Positions 220 to 8,254 are shown, numbered from the stretch's first letter. The stretch: DNA of 8,254 nucleotides from a virus (IMGVR_UViG_2565956626_000015); one strand, 5' to 3'. The notes: generated from the sequence alone by a model not told the origin. A program made the numbers and translations.

Positions 220-663
220 ATGGTCTTTGCAATGAGCAAATCTAATCTGGTCGCGTTCCGCATCCCATCTGAATTGCAGGATGAGTTTAATCGGTCTGTT
301 CTCGCTTCTGGAGGGGATAAAACCTCCTGGCTTGTTGATGCGATTCGCATGAAGCTGGGACAGCCGGAAAAGTCTATTGATTCACGAATGCTTGGGCTGG
401 TGGAGCGCATGGAAAAAGCCGCTGCGTCGCTTATTGCCGGAAAGCCGAACATCCCACCAAAGCCATATAACGAAACGGCAGTTATAAAGATCATTGCCGA
501 TACCATCCGACAGGGGTTTGATAATGGGCGTGTGATAGCGGAACGGCTCAATGAAGCAGGCTATCAAACAAAAGCTGGTAAAGCATGGGATAAAGACATT
601 TACAGCGCGTGGAAGCGTCAGGGAAGCAATGCTGAAAAGTTATCAGTGGCTCTAAGAATGTAG
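220..663 (+). CDS. DNA-binding protein with N-terminal Arc/Mnt-type RHH domain and C-terminal serine-recombinase-type DNA-binding motif (147 aa; alternative start ATG 232)
   Basis: N-terminus (LVAFRIPSELQDEF...GGDKTSWLVDAIRMKL) fits the RHH pattern beta-strand/helix/G-x-S-T/helix seen in P22 Arc and Mnt (FNFRMPMEV...GRSMNSELL). C-terminus (VIAERLNEAGYQTKAGKAWDKDIYSAWKRQG) resembles the conserved motif of the recombinase domain of large serine recombinases. No clear Shine-Dalgarno, so the start is uncertain. Confidence 0.65.
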   Translation: MVFAMSKSNLVAFRIPSELQDEFNRSVLASGGDKTSWLVDAIRMKLGQPEKSIDSRMLGLVERMEKAAASLIAGKPNIPPKPYNETAVIKIIADTIRQGFDNGRVIAERLNEAGYQTKAGKAWDKDIYSAWKRQGSNAEKLSVALRM

Positions 664-679
664 CCCTATATTTTGATTT

Positions 680-1057
680 TTAGACGTGCTTGGAGAACAG
701 GTAGCGTGCCATCACTAAAACAATGCCAAAGACTTCAGCGAGGGTTCCCCCCATAAATAGGTTTATAACGAAATCACTAAAATGGAGCAGTTTTGCTCCA
801 ATAAGGACAAAAATCCCATTCATAACTAATAGCTGGCCTATCAGAATGCCGATAAACCACCGAGCAAACATTTTTTTCAGTTTTGTGTCTGTTTTTAAAT
901 CTTTTGTTTTTGCACGCTGATGGGCTTTGGCTGGATCCTCATCATTTAGATGTGTGAGGGTTTTTGCTGATGGTGATGAGCCAGAGGCTGGTTCACCTCT
1001 GGCTTGTCTTGCCGCTTGCTTTAGTTTTTCAGATATAGCGTAAGATCTAGACGTCAT
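680..1057 (-). CDS. Small membrane protein, 125 aa: charged Lys/Pro/Ala-rich cytoplasmic N-terminal tail plus two predicted TM helices
   Basis: Hydrophobic segments WFIGILIGQLLVMNGIFVLIGA and INLFMGGTLAEVFGIVLVMARYLF follow a roughly 60-aa hydrophilic N-terminus. Its ATG lies 3 nt after the stop of the upstream peptidase gene (TGA-GTA-ATG), indicating translational coupling. Confidence 0.7.
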   Translation of the reverse strand: MTSRSYAISEKLKQAARQARGEPASGSSPSAKTLTHLNDEDPAKAHQRAKTKDLKTDTKLKKMFARWFIGILIGQLLVMNGIFVLIGAKLLHFSDFVINLFMGGTLAEVFGIVLVMARYLFSKHV

Positions 1058-1060
1058 TAC

Positions 1061-1549
1061 TCATCGAAGCCCTAAATTCTTTAGGCGATAACGTATAGCA
1101 TCATCGGATACACCAAAATAGGAAGCCATCATTACTGGTGCATATCCTGCATTGTTGAGGCGTCGAACCTCTTTTTCTGGCATGAGAAGACATGCTGCAA
1201 AGTTATTGGCGAATATTTCTTCGCTGTCTACACCTTGGCTTGCCAGTTTTCCGCGGTAATCAACAAACTCATATTCAAGTGGCTGACCGTTCTCAGTTCG
1301 TTTGACGTAATGCCCTAACTCATGCGCACACGTAAATCGTTTGCGCACGTTACTATCATTACGATTGAGTATGATTACTGGATCTTGTTCTGGCTCTTTC
1401 AGCAATGCGCCTGAAACATCATCATCAAGCGTGGTTTCAACAACATCCAACCCTAACTCATTGGCAATCCATACTGGATCAACCGGGAATTTCCTATCGC
1501 CCCAGATATCTTTCAAGAGGGCATGTGCAGATGTATTCGACATGTTCAC
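1061..1549 (-). CDS. ImmA/IrrE-family zinc metallopeptidase (Peptidase_M78/DUF955-like), 162 aa, standalone without HTH domain
   Basis: HExxH motif in CAHELGHYV with downstream FANNFAACLLMPEKEV, characteristic of ImmA/IrrE peptidases. Strong Shine-Dalgarno (AAGGAGGTGA) sits 5 nt upstream of the ATG at 1549. Confidence 0.85.
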   Translation of the reverse strand: MNMSNTSAHALLKDIWGDRKFPVDPVWIANELGLDVVETTLDDDVSGALLKEPEQDPVIILNRNDSNVRKRFTCAHELGHYVKRTENGQPLEYEFVDYRGKLASQGVDSEEIFANNFAACLLMPEKEVRRLNNAGYAPVMMASYFGVSDDAIRYRLKNLGLR

Positions 1550-1630
1550 CTCCTTTGATTATGGTTAAATAGTCGAAATTTTCACCACTTCCCTTGTGGA
1601 TATATTTACATATAAAAGGTAACTAGTCAC

Positions 1631-1642
1631 TAACCAACACAA
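1631..1642 (+). promoter_or_regulatory. Internal iteron-like site TAACCAACACAA in the peptidase operon upstream region
   Basis: AACCAACACAA (11 nt) exactly matches the terminal iteron copy read as the reverse complement of 8144-8154. It lies in the intergenic region between the peptidase start (1549) and the divergent mini-ORF (1725). Confidence 0.3.
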
Positions 1643-1724
1643 ATCTTTTTGAAGACAGATGGGGGGTGTTGAACGGTTTTTAAATGATTTCTTTGATTTT
1701 TAACAGCAATAAGGAGCATTTTTA

Positions 1725-1778
1725 ATGAAATTAGACGTTGATAATAACTTTTTGAGCAATCTTTACATATCATGGTAG
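1725..1778 (+). CDS. Mini-ORF, 17 aa (MKLDVDNNFLSNLYISW), with strong RBS; possible leader peptide or relic N-terminus
   Basis: AAGGAG at 1711-1716 lies 8 nt upstream of the ATG at 1725. It is divergent from the peptidase operon, and no long ORF follows. Confidence 0.2.
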   Translation: MKLDVDNNFLSNLYISW

Positions 1779-2000
1779 CCTTCTATGCTGTTTTTCCAAC
1801 TAAAAGATTGGCACATTTATCCGCTGGTAGTGGCGTTTTTTCGCCGCCAGCGCCTCTCTGGTTCCATTCCTTACATCTGTTCAAATTCAGCAACCCTTGC
1901 CGCGATCTTGCCGTTATCGAGAAGCTCTTTCGCTTTTCGGTTAATACTATCGGTCTTCATATTGCCAGCAGCATACGCCATCCGATAATTTCGATGCTAC

Positions 2001-2380
2001 GCGCGCGTACTTGTCGCAAAATATCAGGCAAAGGCCAGATTCAGAAAGTCGTGATAACCACCAGCACAACATGAGAGGTCATGTAACGCGATTTATCACA
2101 CCAGATACATGTGATTGGTGTACCCGCATAAAACATCGTCATAGCGCGTCCTGTGCGCATATACGCCGATAATCAACACATCACCACCACTCTGTCTTAT
2201 GTAGAGAACAGTTTTATGGTGCTCCCCGCCATCGTGTGCGTACTGGTCGGACGCAGTTCAAAAAATTTTGCAACTGATACCCCTCGCGCGCGTACTGGTC
2301 ACGAAATTGGTGTTTTGCTGTGGCAGTGATATCAGAAAAATCTTCCTGTTTCACATAAAGCGGATATGCGCGTACTGTAA
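2001..2380. repeat. Dispersed repeat family with core GCGCGTACTGG, four copies
   Basis: GCGCGCGTACTTGTC at 2001-2015, GTGCGTACTGGTC at 2236-2248, GCGCGCGTACTGGTC at 2286-2300 and GCGCGTACTG at 2368-2377, all in a stretch lacking a convincing ORF. Confidence 0.5.
2096..2310 (-). pseudogene. Possible frameshifted remnant of a RelE/ParE-family toxin gene
   Basis: Minus-strand translation gives ...TVLYIRQSGGDVLIIGVYAHRTRYDD..., resembling the conserved RelE/ParE C-terminus (Y-R-x-x-x-x-V-x-I-L-x-V-x-H-R-x-x-Y). The upstream part is in another frame with no intact start. Hand translation only. Confidence 0.2.
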
Positions 2381-2493
2381 CGGCCCCATCAACGGGGATC
2401 GGATTTGAAATCCTGACCCAAGCTATGTACCAAATGCCATGTCTTGGATATATGATGATTGCCATTCTAAACAAAGCTAAAGGGAGGGTTGGT

Positions 2494-2844
2494 GTGAATG
2501 CTCAGGCTGTCATCATGGTTTTCCTTGGTCTGATTGTCGCAAAACTATATCCAGACTGGTGGAAAGGGGCATTAGCAACTGTCGCCATCTATTTGCTTTT
2601 ATCCGTCGTTAAGCGATCGTTCGTTAAGACCGTAAATCAAGCAAAACGTTTCTCATTTAAGAATTTAATAAACTATATTACTGGGCTTATTTTTTGCCTT
2701 TCAATTTTGATCGCTTCAGCTTTTTTGCCCGTATCAATAGCTAATTTTTTTGGCGCACCATATGAGGTAGGTTATCTATTCTCTGTTTTTTGTCTTGTTC
2801 TTTCCCTTCTTTACCTATGGATGAGAGCAAAGAACAAAAATTAG
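2494..2844 (+). CDS. Small polytopic membrane protein, about 4 TM helices (116 aa from GTG 2494; 139 aa if ATG 2425)
   Basis: Strong Shine-Dalgarno (AAAGGGAGGG, 2478-2487) precedes the in-frame GTG at 2494, whereas the ATG at 2425 has none. Four hydrophobic segments are present. It is convergent with the 701-aa gene, in the position P22-like phages use for superinfection-exclusion morons. Confidence 0.6.
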   Translation: MNAQAVIMVFLGLIVAKLYPDWWKGALATVAIYLLLSVVKRSFVKTVNQAKRFSFKNLINYITGLIFCLSILIASAFLPVSIANFFGAPYEVGYLFSVFCLVLSLLYLWMRAKNKN

Positions 2845-2862: not shown

Positions 2863-4968
2863 TTATTGAGCTTCTTTTTGTGATGCCTGTGCGACTCTGG
2901 TGAGCGATTGTGTGACCGTACTGATCGCTCTGTCATATGCTGTGCTACCTTTTGGTGTATTTGCCAGACGTAACAAGGCATTTCGTATAACAGGGCTTTC
3001 GTATGCCTTCGCTGCTCCGCCTACGGCACCAGCAGCAGGAACAACAAACGCAGCTGTTTTTAGCATCCCCGCTAATACTGCTGCGTTTATGATGCCACCA
3101 CCAACTAACAATCCATAAAGCTGCTGACCATTTAAGTTTTGAACGTTCGCTTTTGCCGCGTGTCTTGTATCGTTGAGGTATTTAATAACGCCGTCCAGTT
3201 CCTTTCCATGTACGCCTTTAAAGAAAGTTGCTGATTGCTTCCTGTTCCGGTGTAACGCATTAATAAACTTCTCAACACTGATATTTCCAGACGGATCAGT
3301 CGCCTTATCTACAGCATTCTGAACTATGGCTGCTCGTGCGTTTTGCCTACCATTGTCATCCAGAAGCCTGTAAAGCTGAGAACGTTCTGATGGGCTTTGG
3401 CTAAAAACGAGTTTTGTTACATCCTCAGGCGTGGCCTTGCCGCTGGCTATTGCCTTTTGAACGCGCGTTCTTCCCATCATGTCATTGAATTTAGACCATG
3501 AGCGATCAACCCTTGCCATATTAATGGCTTCGTCTGCTCCAAGATTTTTGGCTACGGCTTTTTTCATATCCGCCGTATATGCCTTGTAGATAATATCGCT
3601 GGCTTTCTGGAGCGTATCTTTATCAACAGTGTCAGATGACGCCATAAATCGCTTTCGAAGATCGGTTCTGTTTTCCCTCGCCAGACGCAGGTCATTTGGT
3701 CCGCTGGTGATATCGTCTTTAAATTGCTGCAAGACTTTTACCGCGGCTCTATCCTGAGATTTGCCCGGGCGGCTTAACACGGCAATCTGATTGTCGATAG
3801 CTTTTACCGTGTTTGAGAGATCGACAGGGGTATCCCCCATAGCGTCAATTATGCGGTTATATCGCTTTCCTGCTGCCTCAATGAATTTTTGTTGCCCTTT
3901 AGTCGCAGATTCATAAAGCTGTTTATCAGAAATGCCACCCAGACCATCGCTAAATGTTCTGACTAAATTTTCTCGTGCTTGTTGTTGATTCAGCCGATTC
4001 TTACCGGTTCCAAAAAAAGGAACTCTTTCGCCTAATGTCTGAGCCTGACTCTGCATAAAGGTTTTATCTTTCAGCATGTCACTGGTCATTAACGGCAGAT
4101 TTCTTTCCGATGCAAAGTCGACAGCAGCCTTTGCTTCAGGCGACATATCACCACGAACAGCCCTCGAAACCGCACTCGCTGTATTTTCCAGCCCCTTACC
4201 AATACCACCAATGCCAGCAGAAATTACCGTTTGTAACGGATCAATATCTTCTCCACCAGCAAGGCTGGTGGCTCCCTGTAGTGCTAAATCTGTAGCTGCT
4301 GATTTTCCTATGGCACCAAGCACCGTTCCAGCCCTGCCCGCTGGTGTAAACGCCAACGCATTAGCAAGAAACGAAGTCAGGTCTTGCGGTGATAAACCCG
4401 GTTTGTTTAGGGCATAATCACCTGATGGCAGAGAAACGATAGTATTCCCCTTCTCATCCTGCCTTAATGTCGCCCCCATTCCCTGGAGAATCTTTTCCTG
4501 AGACGCGTCAGAGCCGAAAAGTTGAGACCATCCAGCCTTTAGGGCATCCATGCTTAGTGAGTTCAATTCTGGGGCAGAGGCGACATTTTGCAGTCTCTCC
4601 ATCTCTGGAGTCATTCGGCTTTCGCCTGTTATAGCATCCCGCATCGCAGCCCCAAGACTGGCTCCCTGTTCTGCTGAACGCTCAAGCCCCTCTCTTTGCT
4701 GAGTAGCTAACTTTGCATACCCTGACGCAAGAGAATTATCAGATGATGTATGTTGAATATTTTGAGTTGCTGATTGGGATCGGTCTATTTCATTCGTTGA
4801 TGGTAGTGGATAGGCAGCATAAAAAGCCTGCTTAGCCTGCTCTACACTTTCTCCGGCTTGCGGGGCCACGACTTCATTGAAGTATTGCTCCTGAGCCTGC
4901 GCTTTTTGTTCTGGTGCTAACGCCTGATACTGTGGAGAGGCGATAACATCTTTCCATGCTTTAGCCAT
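2863..4968 (-). CDS. Phage internal/ejection protein-like, 701 aa (P22 gp16-like by position and composition)
   Basis: Last gene of a four-gene coupled operon. Gln/Ala-rich with a Gly/Ala-rich hydrophobic C-terminal segment (LVGGGIINAAVLAGMLKTAAFVVPAAGAVGGAAKA). Its start overlaps the upstream stop (TAATG). Confidence 0.5.
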   Translation of the reverse strand: MAKAWKDVIASPQYQALAPEQKAQAQEQYFNEVVAPQAGESVEQAKQAFYAAYPLPSTNEIDRSQSATQNIQHTSSDNSLASGYAKLATQQREGLERSAEQGASLGAAMRDAITGESRMTPEMERLQNVASAPELNSLSMDALKAGWSQLFGSDASQEKILQGMGATLRQDEKGNTIVSLPSGDYALNKPGLSPQDLTSFLANALAFTPAGRAGTVLGAIGKSAATDLALQGATSLAGGEDIDPLQTVISAGIGGIGKGLENTASAVSRAVRGDMSPEAKAAVDFASERNLPLMTSDMLKDKTFMQSQAQTLGERVPFFGTGKNRLNQQQARENLVRTFSDGLGGISDKQLYESATKGQQKFIEAAGKRYNRIIDAMGDTPVDLSNTVKAIDNQIAVLSRPGKSQDRAAVKVLQQFKDDITSGPNDLRLARENRTDLRKRFMASSDTVDKDTLQKASDIIYKAYTADMKKAVAKNLGADEAINMARVDRSWSKFNDMMGRTRVQKAIASGKATPEDVTKLVFSQSPSERSQLYRLLDDNGRQNARAAIVQNAVDKATDPSGNISVEKFINALHRNRKQSATFFKGVHGKELDGVIKYLNDTRHAAKANVQNLNGQQLYGLLVGGGIINAAVLAGMLKTAAFVVPAAGAVGGAAKAYESPVIRNALLRLANTPKGSTAYDRAISTVTQSLTRVAQASQKEAQ

Positions 4969-6389
4969 TAATCACCCCATAGTGAAGAAAAGTTACTGCT
5001 GGCTGCTGGCTGTGATACCTGCTCAGATTGCGGCAATGTCTGCGACGAAGAAGAAGTTCCTCTGTCAACTGCTGAAATAACCCGCAAAGCATCATAAGCT
5101 CGACCAGAAGCAGCTTTCAGCGAATTGAACTGGTTTTCCATCTTCCGGCGCTTGGTATCAATGGTTTTTGTGGAGTCGCCAGGCTGAGGGAAATACATTT
5201 GATAATATTTTGACATTTCAGCAGGTACGATAGCTGCCCCTGTTTCCTGACGGAGTATTGCCATTATTGCGTCATTAGCATTAACAACGTATTGCTGCTC
5301 TGTTGGGCTGAGCGTTAAGTTAGCCAGCGTCCCATTACCCAAAGCATTATTAATGACCGCCACTCGCTGTGGGCTAAGCTGGTCTTTCAGTGTATCTATT
5401 GAATCAAGAGCATCCCTAACCCTGTATGCAAATCCAGCAGCTTTTTTAGCCCCTTCTGGCGACTTTTCCATGATCTTTTGGGCTGTTGGCAAAGCTATTG
5501 GACGAAATCCATCTCCAGATATTGGCTGGTTTAGTTTTCCCTGCTCTTCACTTCCGTCTGTGTAGTATTTTGTGACAGTGCCATCATCGTTTTCTCTAAC
5601 ACTCATTAATTTTTTGGCGTTTGTATTAATTCCAGCCGCTGCCGCAAATGCCGCCGCCCCCTCTGGATCCGCCTTTAACATTTGAGCGTACTGATTGTAA
5701 TTCTGCATTGCTGCTGTTGGTGCATATGCTGACGTTAACGCATTTGCTCGGCTAATATCCTGCCCTCTCGCCTGAAGTGCTTCGCCAGCCTGATTGCTGC
5801 GGATTGTCTCTGCCAACTTGCCACGCTCAATATCCCGACCTTCCATTTGATCTTTGATATCGAAATACTTCTCATGACCGAGAGAAAACAGTGCCATACT
5901 ACCAGCAAGCCGCTGGAACCACTGTGGATCATTAACATGCATTTCGGCAACAGACTCAGGAGAAATTCCCAAGCGACGCATTTCATCTTCGTTATCTGCT
6001 ATGAATTTTCCAAATGCCCCAGTTCCGAGCGAAGATGCGATTTGAGCACTAGTCGCAAGATGACCAATAGAATTTCTCTGGTCGTCATCAATAAAGCCCA
6101 TCCCTTTCTGAACGCTTTCAAATTCTTCTGGATACTCAGAAATAAGACTGCGCATTTTGTTTCTGTCTCCAGACTCAAAAGCCCCGGCATATGCTTTCTG
6201 AAACTCTGCTTTACGCTGTTGTTGACGTGCCTGCTGATTAATCTCAGCAACGCCTCTTAGCCCCTGTAGCGCCATTAAACCTACGTTTGGCTGCTGCTGA
6301 TACTGCACAGGCTGAGGAACGGAAGAACGAGGAGCATTATCATTTTGCGGTGCCATGCTAGGCAGCCCGCCAAGTTGCCATGTCGCCAT
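4968..6389 (-). CDS. Phage internal/ejection protein-like, 473 aa (P22 gp20-like by size and position)
   Basis: Overlaps both neighbours by TAATG start/stop. Gln-rich and largely helical in composition. Size is close to P22 gp20 as I recall it (about 471 aa). Confidence 0.5.
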   Translation of the reverse strand: MATWQLGGLPSMAPQNDNAPRSSVPQPVQYQQQPNVGLMALQGLRGVAEINQQARQQQRKAEFQKAYAGAFESGDRNKMRSLISEYPEEFESVQKGMGFIDDDQRNSIGHLATSAQIASSLGTGAFGKFIADNEDEMRRLGISPESVAEMHVNDPQWFQRLAGSMALFSLGHEKYFDIKDQMEGRDIERGKLAETIRSNQAGEALQARGQDISRANALTSAYAPTAAMQNYNQYAQMLKADPEGAAAFAAAAGINTNAKKLMSVRENDDGTVTKYYTDGSEEQGKLNQPISGDGFRPIALPTAQKIMEKSPEGAKKAAGFAYRVRDALDSIDTLKDQLSPQRVAVINNALGNGTLANLTLSPTEQQYVVNANDAIMAILRQETGAAIVPAEMSKYYQMYFPQPGDSTKTIDTKRRKMENQFNSLKAASGRAYDALRVISAVDRGTSSSSQTLPQSEQVSQPAASSNFSSLWGD

Positions 6390-7066
6390 TAGAATCCAAG
6401 CCCCCCAACAAGACCAATAAGCCCACCACCAATAGCGCCGGCCGCAGTACCTATTCCAGGAACAACGGAACCAAGTTGCGCACCCGCTAAAGCGCCTGAT
6501 GCTGCCCCACCAATACCACGCGCAAGACTGGATGGCTGCTGCGCCTGACCTGCACGAATAGCGCCAAGCCCCTGCAAGAGTTGCCCGGTATTATTGGCGT
6601 AGTTTTGCCCTGCTGTTGCCTGCCCTGATGCCGCATTCATCCCGACATTTAGCAGGTTTCCATAATTTTGCATTTGCCCACTAAGCCAATTGTTATAAAG
6701 CATGGGCGCAATGGAAGATAACTGGTTACTGGTAGCTGTTGAGCCAAGCCCCCCGGTAGCTTCTGCTGAGACAAGGTTCTGATAACGGGCCTGATCTGCC
6801 TGTGTTTTATATAAACCAGAACCAAAGAAATCATTCGCGGCTTTATTCTGCCCTTCCAGAGTCATCAGTCCTTGTAGTTGTTGTAAAGCAGGCAATCCGA
6901 CTTCTGCATACGGCTTGAGATTATTCATCACCGTATTCCACTGCTCGCGCTGCAAATCAATTGCCTGCTGCTGGGCCTTCGCCTGAGCTTTAGAGGCACC
7001 ACCATCACCGCCTTTTTCGTATACGGCACGATTGAGATGTTTATGAGCTATATGGGTAATTAACAT
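6389..7066 (-). CDS. Phage internal/ejection protein-like, 225 aa (P22 gp7-like by size and position), with Gly-zipper C-terminus
   Basis: C-terminus GGAASGALAGAQLGSVVPGIGTAAGAIGGGLIGLVGGLGF is a glycine-zipper-like membrane-active segment. Its start overlaps the stop of the upstream gene (ATGTTAA). Confidence 0.5.
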   Translation of the reverse strand: MLITHIAHKHLNRAVYEKGGDGGASKAQAKAQQQAIDLQREQWNTVMNNLKPYAEVGLPALQQLQGLMTLEGQNKAANDFFGSGLYKTQADQARYQNLVSAEATGGLGSTATSNQLSSIAPMLYNNWLSGQMQNYGNLLNVGMNAASGQATAGQNYANNTGQLLQGLGAIRAGQAQQPSSLARGIGGAASGALAGAQLGSVVPGIGTAAGAIGGGLIGLVGGLGF

Positions 7067-7521
7067 TCGCTGAGTTCCTTATATTGTTGCCGAGTTAACT
7101 GATAAAGCGTTACGCCAACTGGCTTACCACATCTGATATATGCATCGGCCAGGTGACCAACACGGGTAGCGCCAAGCAAACGGATAATTGCCCGTCCGTA
7201 TTTGGTGGTGTCAGGAACCATGGTAATGCTGTTAAGGAATGGTGAGTTTTCGAGAAGCCATTTGCAGAATAATCGATGCCCTTGCAGTGCATATTCACCA
7301 CGGAATCCGGGGTCGTACACCGCATGGCATTCAACAACGCTATGCCAGAAGTTACGCACTTCATGAACGCCAGCCAGCACTAATCCTTCGTAGATGCCGA
7401 GATATACCGCATCAGGCTTGATGTAGTACGTGTGCCCCGGCTCAACAATATTTTCGGTATTGCCTGGCTCGTTAAGAAAGGCCTGTAATCGCACAGGGTT
7501 ATCAATAAATTTTAGTTCCAT
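7060..7521 (-). CDS. Hypothetical protein, 153 aa; positional equivalent of P22 gene 14, or alternatively an SOS-controlled antirepressor-like protein
   Basis: ORF is translationally coupled to the downstream 225-aa gene and starts 16 bp after the Arc-like ORF. No recognisable catalytic motif. Confidence 0.6.
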   Translation of the reverse strand: MELKFIDNPVRLQAFLNEPGNTENIVEPGHTYYIKPDAVYLGIYEGLVLAGVHEVRNFWHSVVECHAVYDPGFRGEYALQGHRLFCKWLLENSPFLNSITMVPDTTKYGRAIIRLLGATRVGHLADAYIRCGKPVGVTLYQLTRQQYKELSEC

Positions 7522-7537
7522 GCGATGCCATCCATTT

Positions 7538-7699
7538 TCACATACAGCCTGCCAGCGCCTTATCTATTAACCCTCGTGCAATTTCATGCAGAGTTGGCGC
7601 TACTCCAATTCCTGATTTTTTACGCTGCTCTTCCTGAATTTTCTTTATCGCTTCCATTTGCTTCTCACTTATCAATACCGGCTTTACTGAAATAGCCAT
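7538..7699 (-). CDS. Small Arc/CopG-type RHH DNA-binding protein, 53 aa (MAISVKPVLISEKQMEAIKKIQEEQRKKSGIGVAPTLHEIARGLIDKALAGCM)
   Basis: Not in the supplied ORF track (below its length cutoff); found by hand translation of the minus strand. Shine-Dalgarno AAGGGGG lies 4 nt before the ATG. The beta-strand/helix/G-x-x/helix layout is typical of RHH repressors. Confidence 0.55.
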   Translation of the reverse strand: MAISVKPVLISEKQMEAIKKIQEEQRKKSGIGVAPTLHEIARGLIDKALAGCM

Positions 7700-7712
7700 A
7701 ACGCCCCCTTAG

Positions 7713-7738
7713 AACTGTATAAAACAACAGTTATTATA
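7713..7738 (-). promoter_or_regulatory. LexA (SOS) box-like site CTGT-N8-ACAG abutting a perfect -10 TATAAT, upstream of the Arc-like ORF
   Basis: AACTGTATAAAACAACAGTT (7713-7732) matches the CTGT-N8-ACAG core of the E. coli LexA box consensus TACTGTATATATATACAGTA. The minus-strand TATAAT (complement of 7733-7738) is adjacent, so the box would cover the transcription start. Confidence 0.5.
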
Positions 7739-7790
7739 GTTTCACAAATCGCAATATTCATCATCGTAATTGCAAAATATGAAACAAATA

Positions 7791-7827
7791 GCACAAAAAA
7801 ATGCCACCGCTCAGTAGCTGGTGGCAT
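7791..7827 (-). terminator. Intrinsic terminator (minus strand) upstream of the Arc-like promoter
   Basis: Stem ATGCCACCGCT (7801-7811) pairs with AGC(t)GGTGGCAT (7816-7827) around loop CAGT with one bulge. On the minus strand it is followed by TTTTTTGTGC (complement of 7791-7800). Confidence 0.6.
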
Positions 7828-8020
7828 CGTTCTGTGTGTCAGGTTTTGACAGGTTTTTTATGGACTCTAAAAACTATATTTATGGTGTCGCATTACTCTT
7901 CACGGCAGGCGCTTTTCAGTTCTGCCCTTGCTTCTGGCTCCATTGGTAATTTGATTCGCGATCAGCTATGCGGATGGTTTGCTGAACAGGCATAACAACT
8001 TCTCAGAGGCTGTTTTCTGA

Positions 8021-8039
8021 ACTACGAAAATTTCGTAGT
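8021..8039. promoter_or_regulatory. Perfect 19-bp palindrome ACTACGAAA-A-TTTCGTAGT, operator-like
   Basis: Two 9-bp arms are exact reverse complements. It shares TACGAAA/TTTCGTA half-sites with the second palindrome at 8077-8097. Confidence 0.45.
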
Positions 8040-8076
8040 GCTCACTTTCAAAAACGTCACGCCCTTGTACACAGGA

Positions 8077-8097
8077 TTTTACGAAAGTCTCGTAAAA
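8077..8097. promoter_or_regulatory. Inverted repeat TTTTACGA-aagtc-TCGTAAAA, operator-like
   Basis: Two 8-bp arms are exact reverse complements around a 5-bp spacer, with the same TACGAAA half-site family as 8021-8039. Confidence 0.4.
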
Positions 8098-8147
8098 CAC
8101 TCTCTGATGCCAGCCAGGTGTTGTGCGCATCAATTCAGTCACATTGT

Positions 8148-8188
8148 GTTGGTTCAAAATACCGTGTTGTTGGTTCAGTGTTGGTTCA
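8148..8188 (-). repeat. Iteron array, right end: GTTGGTTCA at 8148-8156, 8169-8177, 8180-8188
   Basis: Three exact copies of the reverse-complement iteron. Copy 8180-8188 mirrors left copy 67-75 exactly; the other two are shifted by about one helical turn relative to the left arm. Confidence 0.8.
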
Positions 8189-8220
8189 ATAAAAAGAATA
8201 AAATCCTTATAAAACAATAC

Positions 8221-8254
8221 TCTTTACAAATTGAACCAACTGAACCAACTGAAC
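8221..8254. repeat. Right terminal inverted repeat, perfect 34-bp partner of 1-34
   Basis: 8221-8254 (TCTTTACAAATTGAACCAACTGAACCAACTGAAC) is the reverse complement of 1-34, with two contiguous TGAACCAAC units (8232-8240, 8241-8249) plus a partial TGAAC. Confidence 0.9.

Follow-up and report, generated by a model that had tools for sequence, protein, structure and literature searches.

An operon of P22-type ejection-protein homologues in a putative phage satellite of the EcCIMP1 lineage

Introduction

EcCIMP1 is a 19,963-bp phage-inducible chromosomal island (PICI) of Escherichia coli MP1 that is excised, circularised and transferred only with the P22-like helper phage Kapi1 (Pick, Stadel & Raivio, ISME J 2025, PMC11773190; the source for all literature evidence on EcCIMP1 used here). 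The island leaves Kapi1 titres unchanged and adds to superinfection immunity in lysogens. The paper mentions "DNA transfer-like" genes without interpreting them; the word 'ejection' is absent from it, and a P22 ejection-protein set, a LexA box and a duplicated origin are not identified there (PMC11773190). Here we describe the 8,254-nt viral stretch IMGVR_UViG_2565956626_000015 (called the window, always at its whole length), which carries an operon of homologues of the P22 ejection proteins (E-proteins) and belongs to an island that comparison supports as a PICI of the EcCIMP1 lineage and a putative satellite of P22-like (Lederbergvirus) phages.

Two groups of described systems are closest to this operon. 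The first is the Lederbergvirus cluster 14-7-20-16 of P22 and Kapi1, which has homologous proteins, the same gene order, tight coupling between the genes and the same mosaic pattern. Whereas that cluster is expressed by read-through from the late promoter, the island operon has its own LexA-box promoter and a small regulator gene, with neither genes 4-10-26 ahead of it nor immI and the tailspike gene after it. The second group comprises the hijack modules of classical PICIs, of the Staphylococcus aureus pathogenicity islands (SaPIs) and of P4, which act through capsid-size redirection, through TerS, Ppi or Rpp, or through the capsids of capsid-forming PICIs (cf-PICIs). These modules likewise lie downstream of pri-rep and the replication origin (ori) and encode proteins acting on helper virion morphogenesis, as the operon proteins here would, and in some relatives of the island the operon also includes TerS-like genes. 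They differ in that the island cargo is a DNA-delivery or ejection apparatus rather than a set of capsid-size or packaging-specificity factors, and in that the island has no homologues of sid/psu/delta, cpm or ppi. To our knowledge, the known phage satellites alter capsid size, packaging specificity or tail use, and none has been shown to have a DNA-injection apparatus of its own.

The ejection-protein operon

The original prediction described four genes of 153, 225, 473 and 701 aa chained by overlapping stop and start codons (ATGTTAA, TAATG, TAATG) and read them as P22-type ejection proteins. The arrangement is exactly as described, and homology to P22 gp14, gp7, gp20 and gp16 was found for all four genes in PHROGs and by BLASTP, and for the first three also in Pfam:

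7060..7521, minus strand: gp14-like protein (DUF2824), 153 aa; PF11039 (2.5e-60) and phrog_651
6389..7066, minus strand: gp7-like ejection protein, 225 aa, with a Gly-zipper C-terminus; PF25688 P22_gp7 (6.6e-73) and phrog_598
4968..6389, minus strand: gp20-like ejection protein, 473 aa; PF16928 Inj_translocase (3.8e-58) and phrog_917 (2.9e-111)
2863..4968, minus strand: gp16-like ejection protein, 701 aa; phrog_770 'DNA transfer protein' (2.4e-163), end to end

The genes stand in the order 14-7-20-16, as in P22 and Kapi1. By BLASTP, the gp14-like protein is 84% identical to Kapi1_055 and 24% identical to P22 gp14, and the gp7-like protein, whose PF25688 match covers residues 16–223, is 56% identical to P22 gp7 and 58% to its Kapi1 counterpart. 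The gp20-like protein shows 38% identity to P22 gp20 in the N-terminal 239 aa and an end-to-end match to phrog_917, and the gp16-like protein shows 30% identity to P22 gp16 over 482 aa (E 4e-53) and 67.6% identity to the homologue of phage N7, aligned through the last residue. PGAP tags the gp16-like gene as an 'injection protein, incomplete, missing C-terminus' pseudogene (L001 23154–24969; L002 18154–19969), which is probably an annotation artefact, because the open reading frame (ORF) is full length against both phrog_770 and phage N7.

No internal stop was present in any copy examined. Pairwise ratios of nonsynonymous to synonymous substitution (dN/dS) lie between 0.04 and 0.40 for all five genes of the operon, including a 53-aa gene at its head, with values of 0.18–0.21 for the gp14-like, 0.13 for the gp7-like, 0.33–0.40 for the gp20-like and 0.10–0.14 for the gp16-like gene. 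Judged by sequence, all four homologues of P22 gp14, gp7, gp20 and gp16 are intact and maintained by selection.

Patches of 86–96% nucleotide identity are common to the island E-genes and to Kapi1, Louie, vB_EcoP-720R6, Gally and other phages, and the C-terminal half of the gp20-like gene is 93% identical at the nucleotide level to phages Gally, 683R2 and VSe13. These patches indicate that the island E-genes are mosaic with phage alleles and that exchange with the phage gene pool is ongoing. Among the islands, gp14 and gp7 are near-invariant, while gp20 and gp16 occur as strongly differing alleles; a mosaicism with conserved gp7 and hypervariable gp20 and gp16 has been reported in P22-like phages (PMC10883804).

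Genomic context and comparison with EcCIMP1

Full-length copies of the window at 99% identity or more are found in 65 complete E. coli genomes, where the window is part of a ~16-kb island between dinD and yicC that runs ~7 kb past the right end of the window. The island is ordered tyrosine integrase, hypothetical gene, AlpA, hypothetical gene, AntA, DUF4222, (Ash), Toprim-DUF927 primase, [window] and PerC, and host genes of ordinary kind border it on both sides. The integrase (Arm-DNA-bind_3 plus Phage_integrase) adjoins yicC, as in site-specific chromosomal insertion, the AlpA-family regulator (PF05930, 2.2e-08) follows int, and the primase, which lies outside the window, combines Toprim and DUF927 domains. 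Related islands occupy a second attachment (att) site at tRNA-Thr, beside proA; the shared word for the att core of the yicC/dinD island is 12 nt only.

For 20 kb on either side of the window there is no gene for coat, portal, terminase, gp4/10/26 or tailspike. The island contains no capsid, tail or lysis genes, the E-genes being its sole virion-related content, and no sid, psu or delta (epsilon) gene of P4-like satellites was annotated or detected in it. The original prediction had regarded the setting as atypical, with no tail genes 4-10-26 ahead of the cluster, and this is borne out: upstream are the 53-aa gene, its promoter, an ori and the primase. It had offered two explanations, an unusual podovirus late region or capture of the genes by a different element, and had proposed searching 20 kb on each side for portal, coat, terminase and tailspike genes. 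Because these flanks hold no phage structural genes and no P22-like late operon, but consist of host genes together with integrase, AlpA, AntA and primase, the first explanation falls and the second is correct, the capturing element being an EcCIMP1-like PICI.

EcCIMP1 (locus L006) has the same architecture, namely int, AlpA, AntA, (Ash), Toprim-DUF927, ori, the 53-aa gene, gp14-7-20-16, accessory genes, a second ori and PerC. Its 53-aa protein is identical to that of the window, its gp14 and gp7 are 97% and 99% identical, respectively, and it likewise has two inverted ori copies. The two islands differ in att site (tRNA-Thr in EcCIMP1, yicC/dinD here), in the accessory slot, which here holds an ImmA/IrrE pair, and in the sizes of gp20 and gp16 (439 and 906 aa in EcCIMP1, 473 and 701 aa here); between these alleles gp20 shows 48% N-terminal identity and gp16 no detectable similarity. 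As a member of the EcCIMP1-type PICI lineage, which is already published, the element is ordinary. The window itself is best explained as the origin-to-origin half of the island, a 'virion-hijack plus accessory' segment.

In a few E. coli genomes (H30, H38, H45), insertions of the IS66 or IS3 family break the element, including the gp16-like gene.

Promoter and head gene of the operon

The small gene, LexA-box promoter and terminator that the original prediction placed upstream of the cluster are all present (7699..7538; 7715–7730; ~7795–7825). What it called 'operator-rich non-coding DNA' holds one palindromic operator-like site; the remainder of that description applies to ori iterons rather than to operators.

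7538..7699, minus strand: 53-aa putative ribbon-helix-helix (RHH)-like regulator, first operon gene and family marker, whose homologues head the operon in 68 loci
7715..7730: LexA box CTGTATAAAACAACAG (CTGT-N8-ACAG), between the -10 hexamer and the ribosome-binding site; the sole perfect match in the window, against 0.06 expected
7733..7738, minus strand: consensus -10 hexamer TATAAT, followed after 2 nt by the LexA box; poor -35
7740..7783: imperfect palindrome TTTCATATTTTGCAAT-N12-ATTGCGATTTGTGAAA, operator-like candidate over the -35 region, kept across genera
~7795..7825, minus strand: terminator-like hairpin (GCCACC...GGTGGC) followed by T7, conserved in relatives

The operon promoter is predicted to belong to the LexA (SOS) regulon, with an operator that overlaps the core promoter, and TATAAT occurs at the matching offset in most relatives. 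A perfect LexA box lies ~30–45 nt upstream of the 53-aa gene in 23 of 24 P22-type operons and in 3 of 4 operons encoding a tape measure protein (TMP), and across these 26 loci it is retained with five different N8 spacers; among the 68 loci it is absent from all operons of the internal-virion-protein, TMP-transglycosylase (SLT) and hub types. This distribution would fit helpers of the P22- and TMP-type operons that are temperate and SOS-inducible. The hairpin is predicted to insulate the operon from the primase and ori region upstream.

The 53-aa protein is 100% identical in EcCIMP1, L003 and L004. Its gene occurs in 498 of 5,426 complete E. coli genomes (~9%), and its junction with the gp14-like gene in 258 of them (~5%). 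It has no Pfam or PHROG match. An AlphaFold model (pLDDT 86) has an extended N-terminus and helices at residues 12–29 and 37–52, a topology consistent with the β-strand, helix, helix order of the Arc/MetJ/CopG-type RHH fold, and a Foldseek search with the model gave nothing significant (best E 4.7).

Upstream of the terminator and promoter lies the motif GAGTCCATAAAAA (7855–7867, minus strand), which may be a regulator binding site; in L022 it is tandemly duplicated and recurs after the E-operon (9790–9848, 16886–16910).

Cargo of related islands

With the 53-aa protein as a family marker, 68 loci (L009–L076) from at least eight genera were collected from species-representative genomes, public assemblies and IMG/VR. 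The DUF927 primase lies upstream in 61 of them, and in the other seven the flanks are too short for a call. No P22-like coat, portal or TerL gene was found in the 68 loci by tblastn with Kapi1 queries. The genes carried behind the marker are as follows:

~30 loci: P22-type E-proteins, gp14-7-20-16 or gp20-16 alone
16 loci: TMP-like/transglycosylase (SLT) proteins, with or without phrog_817 and a baseplate hub
13 loci: internal-virion-protein sets (T7_gp14-like, SLT-containing protein of ~890 aa, phrog_3003/1145, phrog_684)
8 loci: hub-first sets
4 loci: lone tape measure protein (PF20155, 4e-53), in L013 the final island gene before host DNA
1 locus: major head protein
2 loci: unclassified

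The slot thus overwhelmingly holds the envelope-penetrating DNA-delivery component of the virion type that is presumably hijacked. Minimal variants that have lost gp14 and gp7 and retain only gp20 and gp16 are found in L005 (12356–14000), L014–L016 (10001–14357), L032 and L035–L038. Klebsiella variants include TerS-like genes within the same operon, which marks it as a morphogenesis or packaging operon rather than a defence slot.

Extra cassettes are inserted between the primase/ori and the 53-aa gene in L012 (4953–9242, minus strand), L017 (7228–9802, minus strand) and L022 (7822–9741, plus strand). They contain either minus-strand genes without assignment or an SSB-ProQ-329 aa set, and they match the reported PICI 'accessory region downstream of pri'.

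A predicted replication origin in two inverted copies

The inverted repeats that enclose the operon are predicted to be two inverted copies of the island replication origin:

8130..8254: ori copy A, starting ~30 bp past the Toprim-DUF927 primase stop codon
1..122: ori copy B, with two GTTGGTTCA iterons (three with the flank), an AT-rich spacer and three TGAACCAAC iterons; inverted copy of 8130–8254

Within the window the terminal inverted repeats span 1–44 and 8211–8254. They continue for ~11 nt outside both window ends (55 nt in L003 and L004), so the window edges cut through the repeat. From the outside inward, each end consists of three copies of GTTGGTTCA, an AT-rich spacer of ~45 nt and three copies of TGAACCAAC, and the 48-kb L001 locus contains 12 iterons against 0.36 expected. 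The published ori of Gram-negative PICIs comprises two iteron sets flanking an AT-rich region after pri-rep (PMC6092414, Fig. 2), and the window shows the same layout, with ori copy A following the primase gene. An ori cluster of this kind lies 3' of the DUF927 primase in the family generally (61 of 68 loci), and the L005 island, with a DUF5906 primase, has other iterons (CTGTACCAC). The original prediction was right that inverted repeats enclose the cluster, but they are origin iteron clusters and not the ends of the capturing element. An Rfam scan of the whole window at E ≤ 1 gave only a chance match to a miRNA model, over the iterons.

EcCIMP1 and the Serratia, Citrobacter-type, Klebsiella and Pectobacterium relatives likewise have a second, inverted ori copy where their cargo ends (for example L006, 7736–7856 and 16276–16396; L014, 9598–9716 and 19010–19130; L022, 7671–7785 and 18672–18775). 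The two copies lie 8–11 kb apart and bracket the E-operon together with the accessory slot. P4 has a two-site replication origin, ori and crr, in which a primase-helicase initiator is used with iterons at two separated sites. The island shares this combination, but its two sites are complete inverted copies 8–11 kb apart that bracket cargo. The bracketing may reflect a two-site origin like P4 ori/crr, in-situ amplification or inversion.

An unannotated 83-aa ORF (7966–8217, minus strand, TTG start) that overlaps the ori iterons has no family matches and is probably spurious.

Proposed function of the operon

We favour, with moderate confidence, the view that the operon is a module with which the satellite re-equips helper virions, giving them a DNA-delivery conduit of its own. 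SOS induction, which would also induce a temperate helper, would de-repress the operon through LexA cleavage. The island E-proteins would then be loaded into helper procapsids, with gp14 assisting, and at the next infection they would be ejected and build a trans-envelope conduit for the packaged DNA, so that the satellite would provide its own DNA-entry apparatus and would not rely on that of the helper. Induction, procapsid loading and conduit formation are plausible steps. The pay-off, which would most likely be a changed entry specificity and especially an escape from SieA-type exclusion in cells carrying a helper prophage, is the least certain.

Several published properties of the P22 proteins bear on this model. 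Foreign E-protein sets assemble into P22 virions and function, and gp7 is interchangeable, while gp16 and gp20 need cognate pairing, mismatched pairs assembling into non-infectious particles (PMC10883804). SieA is a prophage-encoded inner-membrane exclusion protein that blocks injection; it is escaped through changes in gp16 and gp20 and, in part, by the HK620 E-protein set, and analogous exclusion proteins of long-tailed phages are overcome through changes in the tape measure protein (PMC10883804). Minimal islands with only gp20 and gp16 make functional sense because these two form the pair that requires its cognate partner and is targeted by SieA. The gp20 and gp16 of EcCIMP1 are only 26% and 24% identical to those of its helper Kapi1, a divergence which argues that EcCIMP1 carries a different conduit pair and not an extra dose of the helper's. 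At the SieA-escape positions (gp16 G532/P546 and gp20 338–350), the alignment of the island alleles is very divergent.

A number of points weigh against this model. That the island E-proteins enter virions at all is itself a prediction. E-proteins are loaded before DNA packaging, so they would not be sorted specifically to satellite-containing particles, and non-cognate mixing with the gp16 and gp20 of the helper could impair particles (PMC10883804). The SieA proteins of P22 and HS1 exclude phages with very divergent E-proteins, the HK620 set alone partly escaping (PMC10883804), so that divergence by itself does not guarantee a bypass, and no sieA is annotated in Kapi1. Kapi1 transduces EcCIMP1 at a low level, and of 21 strains with EcCIMP1 only 2 have a Kapi1-like prophage (PMC11773190). 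As for regulation, a consensus scan of 7400–8254 calls no full sigma-70 promoter, owing to the poor -35. The master regulator of PICIs, alpA, is responsive to the helper but not to SOS (PMC11773190, PMC6092414), so that a separate LexA-controlled operon would be unusual.

Alternative explanations

The best-surviving alternative, which we regard as unlikely, is that the island E-proteins act in interference or defence against phages rather than in delivery of satellite DNA, either by non-cognate gp16/gp20 co-assembly that renders helper or invader particles non-infectious or by conferring superinfection immunity on the carrier. Particles with mismatched gp16 and gp20 are indeed non-infectious (PMC10883804), but such a poison would harm the particles of the satellite itself just as much; in lysogens, EcCIMP1 contributes to immunity against superinfection by Kapi1, but it does not lower Kapi1 titres (PMC11773190). 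A PICI defence hotspot downstream of pri is known (PMC11364771) and defence or toxin-antitoxin (TA) genes adjoin the operon, whereas the E-proteins have no PADLOC match and the TerS-like genes of the Klebsiella operon mark packaging. Furthermore, one dominant-negative fragment would suffice for interference, yet a full cognate gp20 and gp16 pair is kept together with gp14 and gp7 under purifying selection.

It is far less probable that the genes are an inert remnant, that is, a functionless piece of a P22-like prophage recombined into the island. The PGAP pseudogene flag on the gp16-like gene recurs in many genomes and would suit this reading, but it conflicts with the end-to-end phrog_770 and N7 matches. 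The loss of gp14 and gp7 from the L005-type islands also speaks for it. Against it, all ORFs are intact with dN/dS of 0.04–0.40, 258 of 5,426 complete E. coli genomes share the RHH-gp14 junction, the module recurs at 79–89% protein identity in Leclercia, Citrobacter-type and Serratia islands, and the operon has kept its own conserved promoter and LexA box.

We see very little likelihood that the E-genes were captured by a transposon-like element with the 44-nt terminal inverted repeats as its ends. The repeats do stand at the exact ends of the window, which first suggests such an element, but they extend beyond it to 55 nt and consist of iterons in the PICI ori layout, one copy abutting the primase gene, with an iteron type that shifts with the primase type. 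Neither ORF calls nor Pfam revealed a transposase in the window, and the bracketed content varies while the flanks are fixed. The reading of the repeats as transposon ends is ruled out on these grounds.

An oddly arranged late region of a P22-like prophage has virtually no chance of being correct, for although the gene order 14-7-20-16 matches P22 and Kapi1, the reading is refuted by the flanking sequence, which lacks coat, portal, terminase, gp4/10/26 and tailspike genes for 20 kb. In addition, tblastn with Kapi1 coat, portal and TerL matched none of the 68 loci.

Wider significance

Beyond the single operon, we tentatively suggest, while thinking it slightly the less probable outcome, that this widespread enterobacterial satellite family practises 'conduit piracy', in which each lineage carries genome-delivery proteins matched to its helper that replace or supplement those of the helper. 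The satellite would then control how and into which cells its DNA enters, for example by getting past injection blocks of the SieA, Ltp or gp15 type in helper lysogens, and LexA control would be expected only where the helper is temperate and SOS-inducible. If true, this would be a way of hijacking helpers that differs from redirecting capsid size, redirecting the terminase and forming capsids.

A search for literature on satellites with ejection, internal virion or tape measure proteins found only the EcCIMP1 paper, in a search that most subscription journals lay outside. In the searchable literature, a complete, selected and SOS-box-controlled P22 ejection-protein set in a satellite appears to be undescribed, as do a duplicated inverted origin and a family-wide swapping of DNA-delivery modules. 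Jointly, these three results form a testable hypothesis of a new satellite strategy, in an island lineage that is common and includes an experimentally tractable relative with a known helper (EcCIMP1 and Kapi1). If the E-proteins load into helper virions, the role of the "DNA transfer-like" genes of EcCIMP1 would be explained, and the islands would offer a natural setting in which to study how interchangeable E-proteins are and how SieA-type exclusion acts, with a modular slot in which delivery proteins are swapped by helper type. For annotation, prophage finders and PGAP wrongly call such islands incomplete P22-like prophages and give the gp16-like gene, although intact, the label of a pseudogene.

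Other features of the window

The remainder of the window, between ori copy B and the gp16-like gene, contains the following features:

220..663, plus strand: 147-aa protein adjoining ori copy B, kept in the island family (annotated in L001, L002, L004 and L005)
680..1549, minus strand: accessory slot with an ImmA/IrrE M78 peptidase (1549..1061) and a 125-aa protein (1057..680)
1550..2424: ORF-poor stretch with degenerate repeat copies (GACCAGTACGCGCGCG, GAAGATTTTT..ATCACT)
2425..2844, plus strand: hydrophobic protein of 139 aa, placed and oriented like sieA of P22, its gene convergent with the gp16-like gene

The 147-aa protein has only sub-threshold Pfam matches. In the accessory slot, the peptidase matches Peptidase_M78 (9.6e-20) and PADLOC capP (4.9e-25), and it is paired not with the usual helix-turn-helix partner but with the 125-aa protein, which has a hydrophobic C-terminus. 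When PADLOC was run on all window proteins, this peptidase (capP/RmrA) was the only match. The slot in relatives holds Abi, Abi_2, RnlA/RnlB, SLFN_AlbA_2 or Fic/Abi_C, a content that identifies it as a defence/TA hotspot.

The ORF-poor stretch has no Rfam match, and Tandem Repeats Finder reported no array in 1500–2500. In Citrobacter-type and Leclercia relatives (L022, 16341–16851; L010, 16173–16710), its repeat units are arrayed in at least nine copies downstream of the E-operon, and the array may serve proteins as a landing pad, for instance as a pac-like site.

The 139-aa protein was compared with P22 SieA (type A), giving a BLASTP E of 0.95; the FxRYPxEAxxFNK motif is absent from its translation, and no homologue was found in the phage collection. 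Lacking both SieA similarity and a phage homologue, it was rejected as a SieA and is instead a candidate island-specific exclusion or membrane factor.

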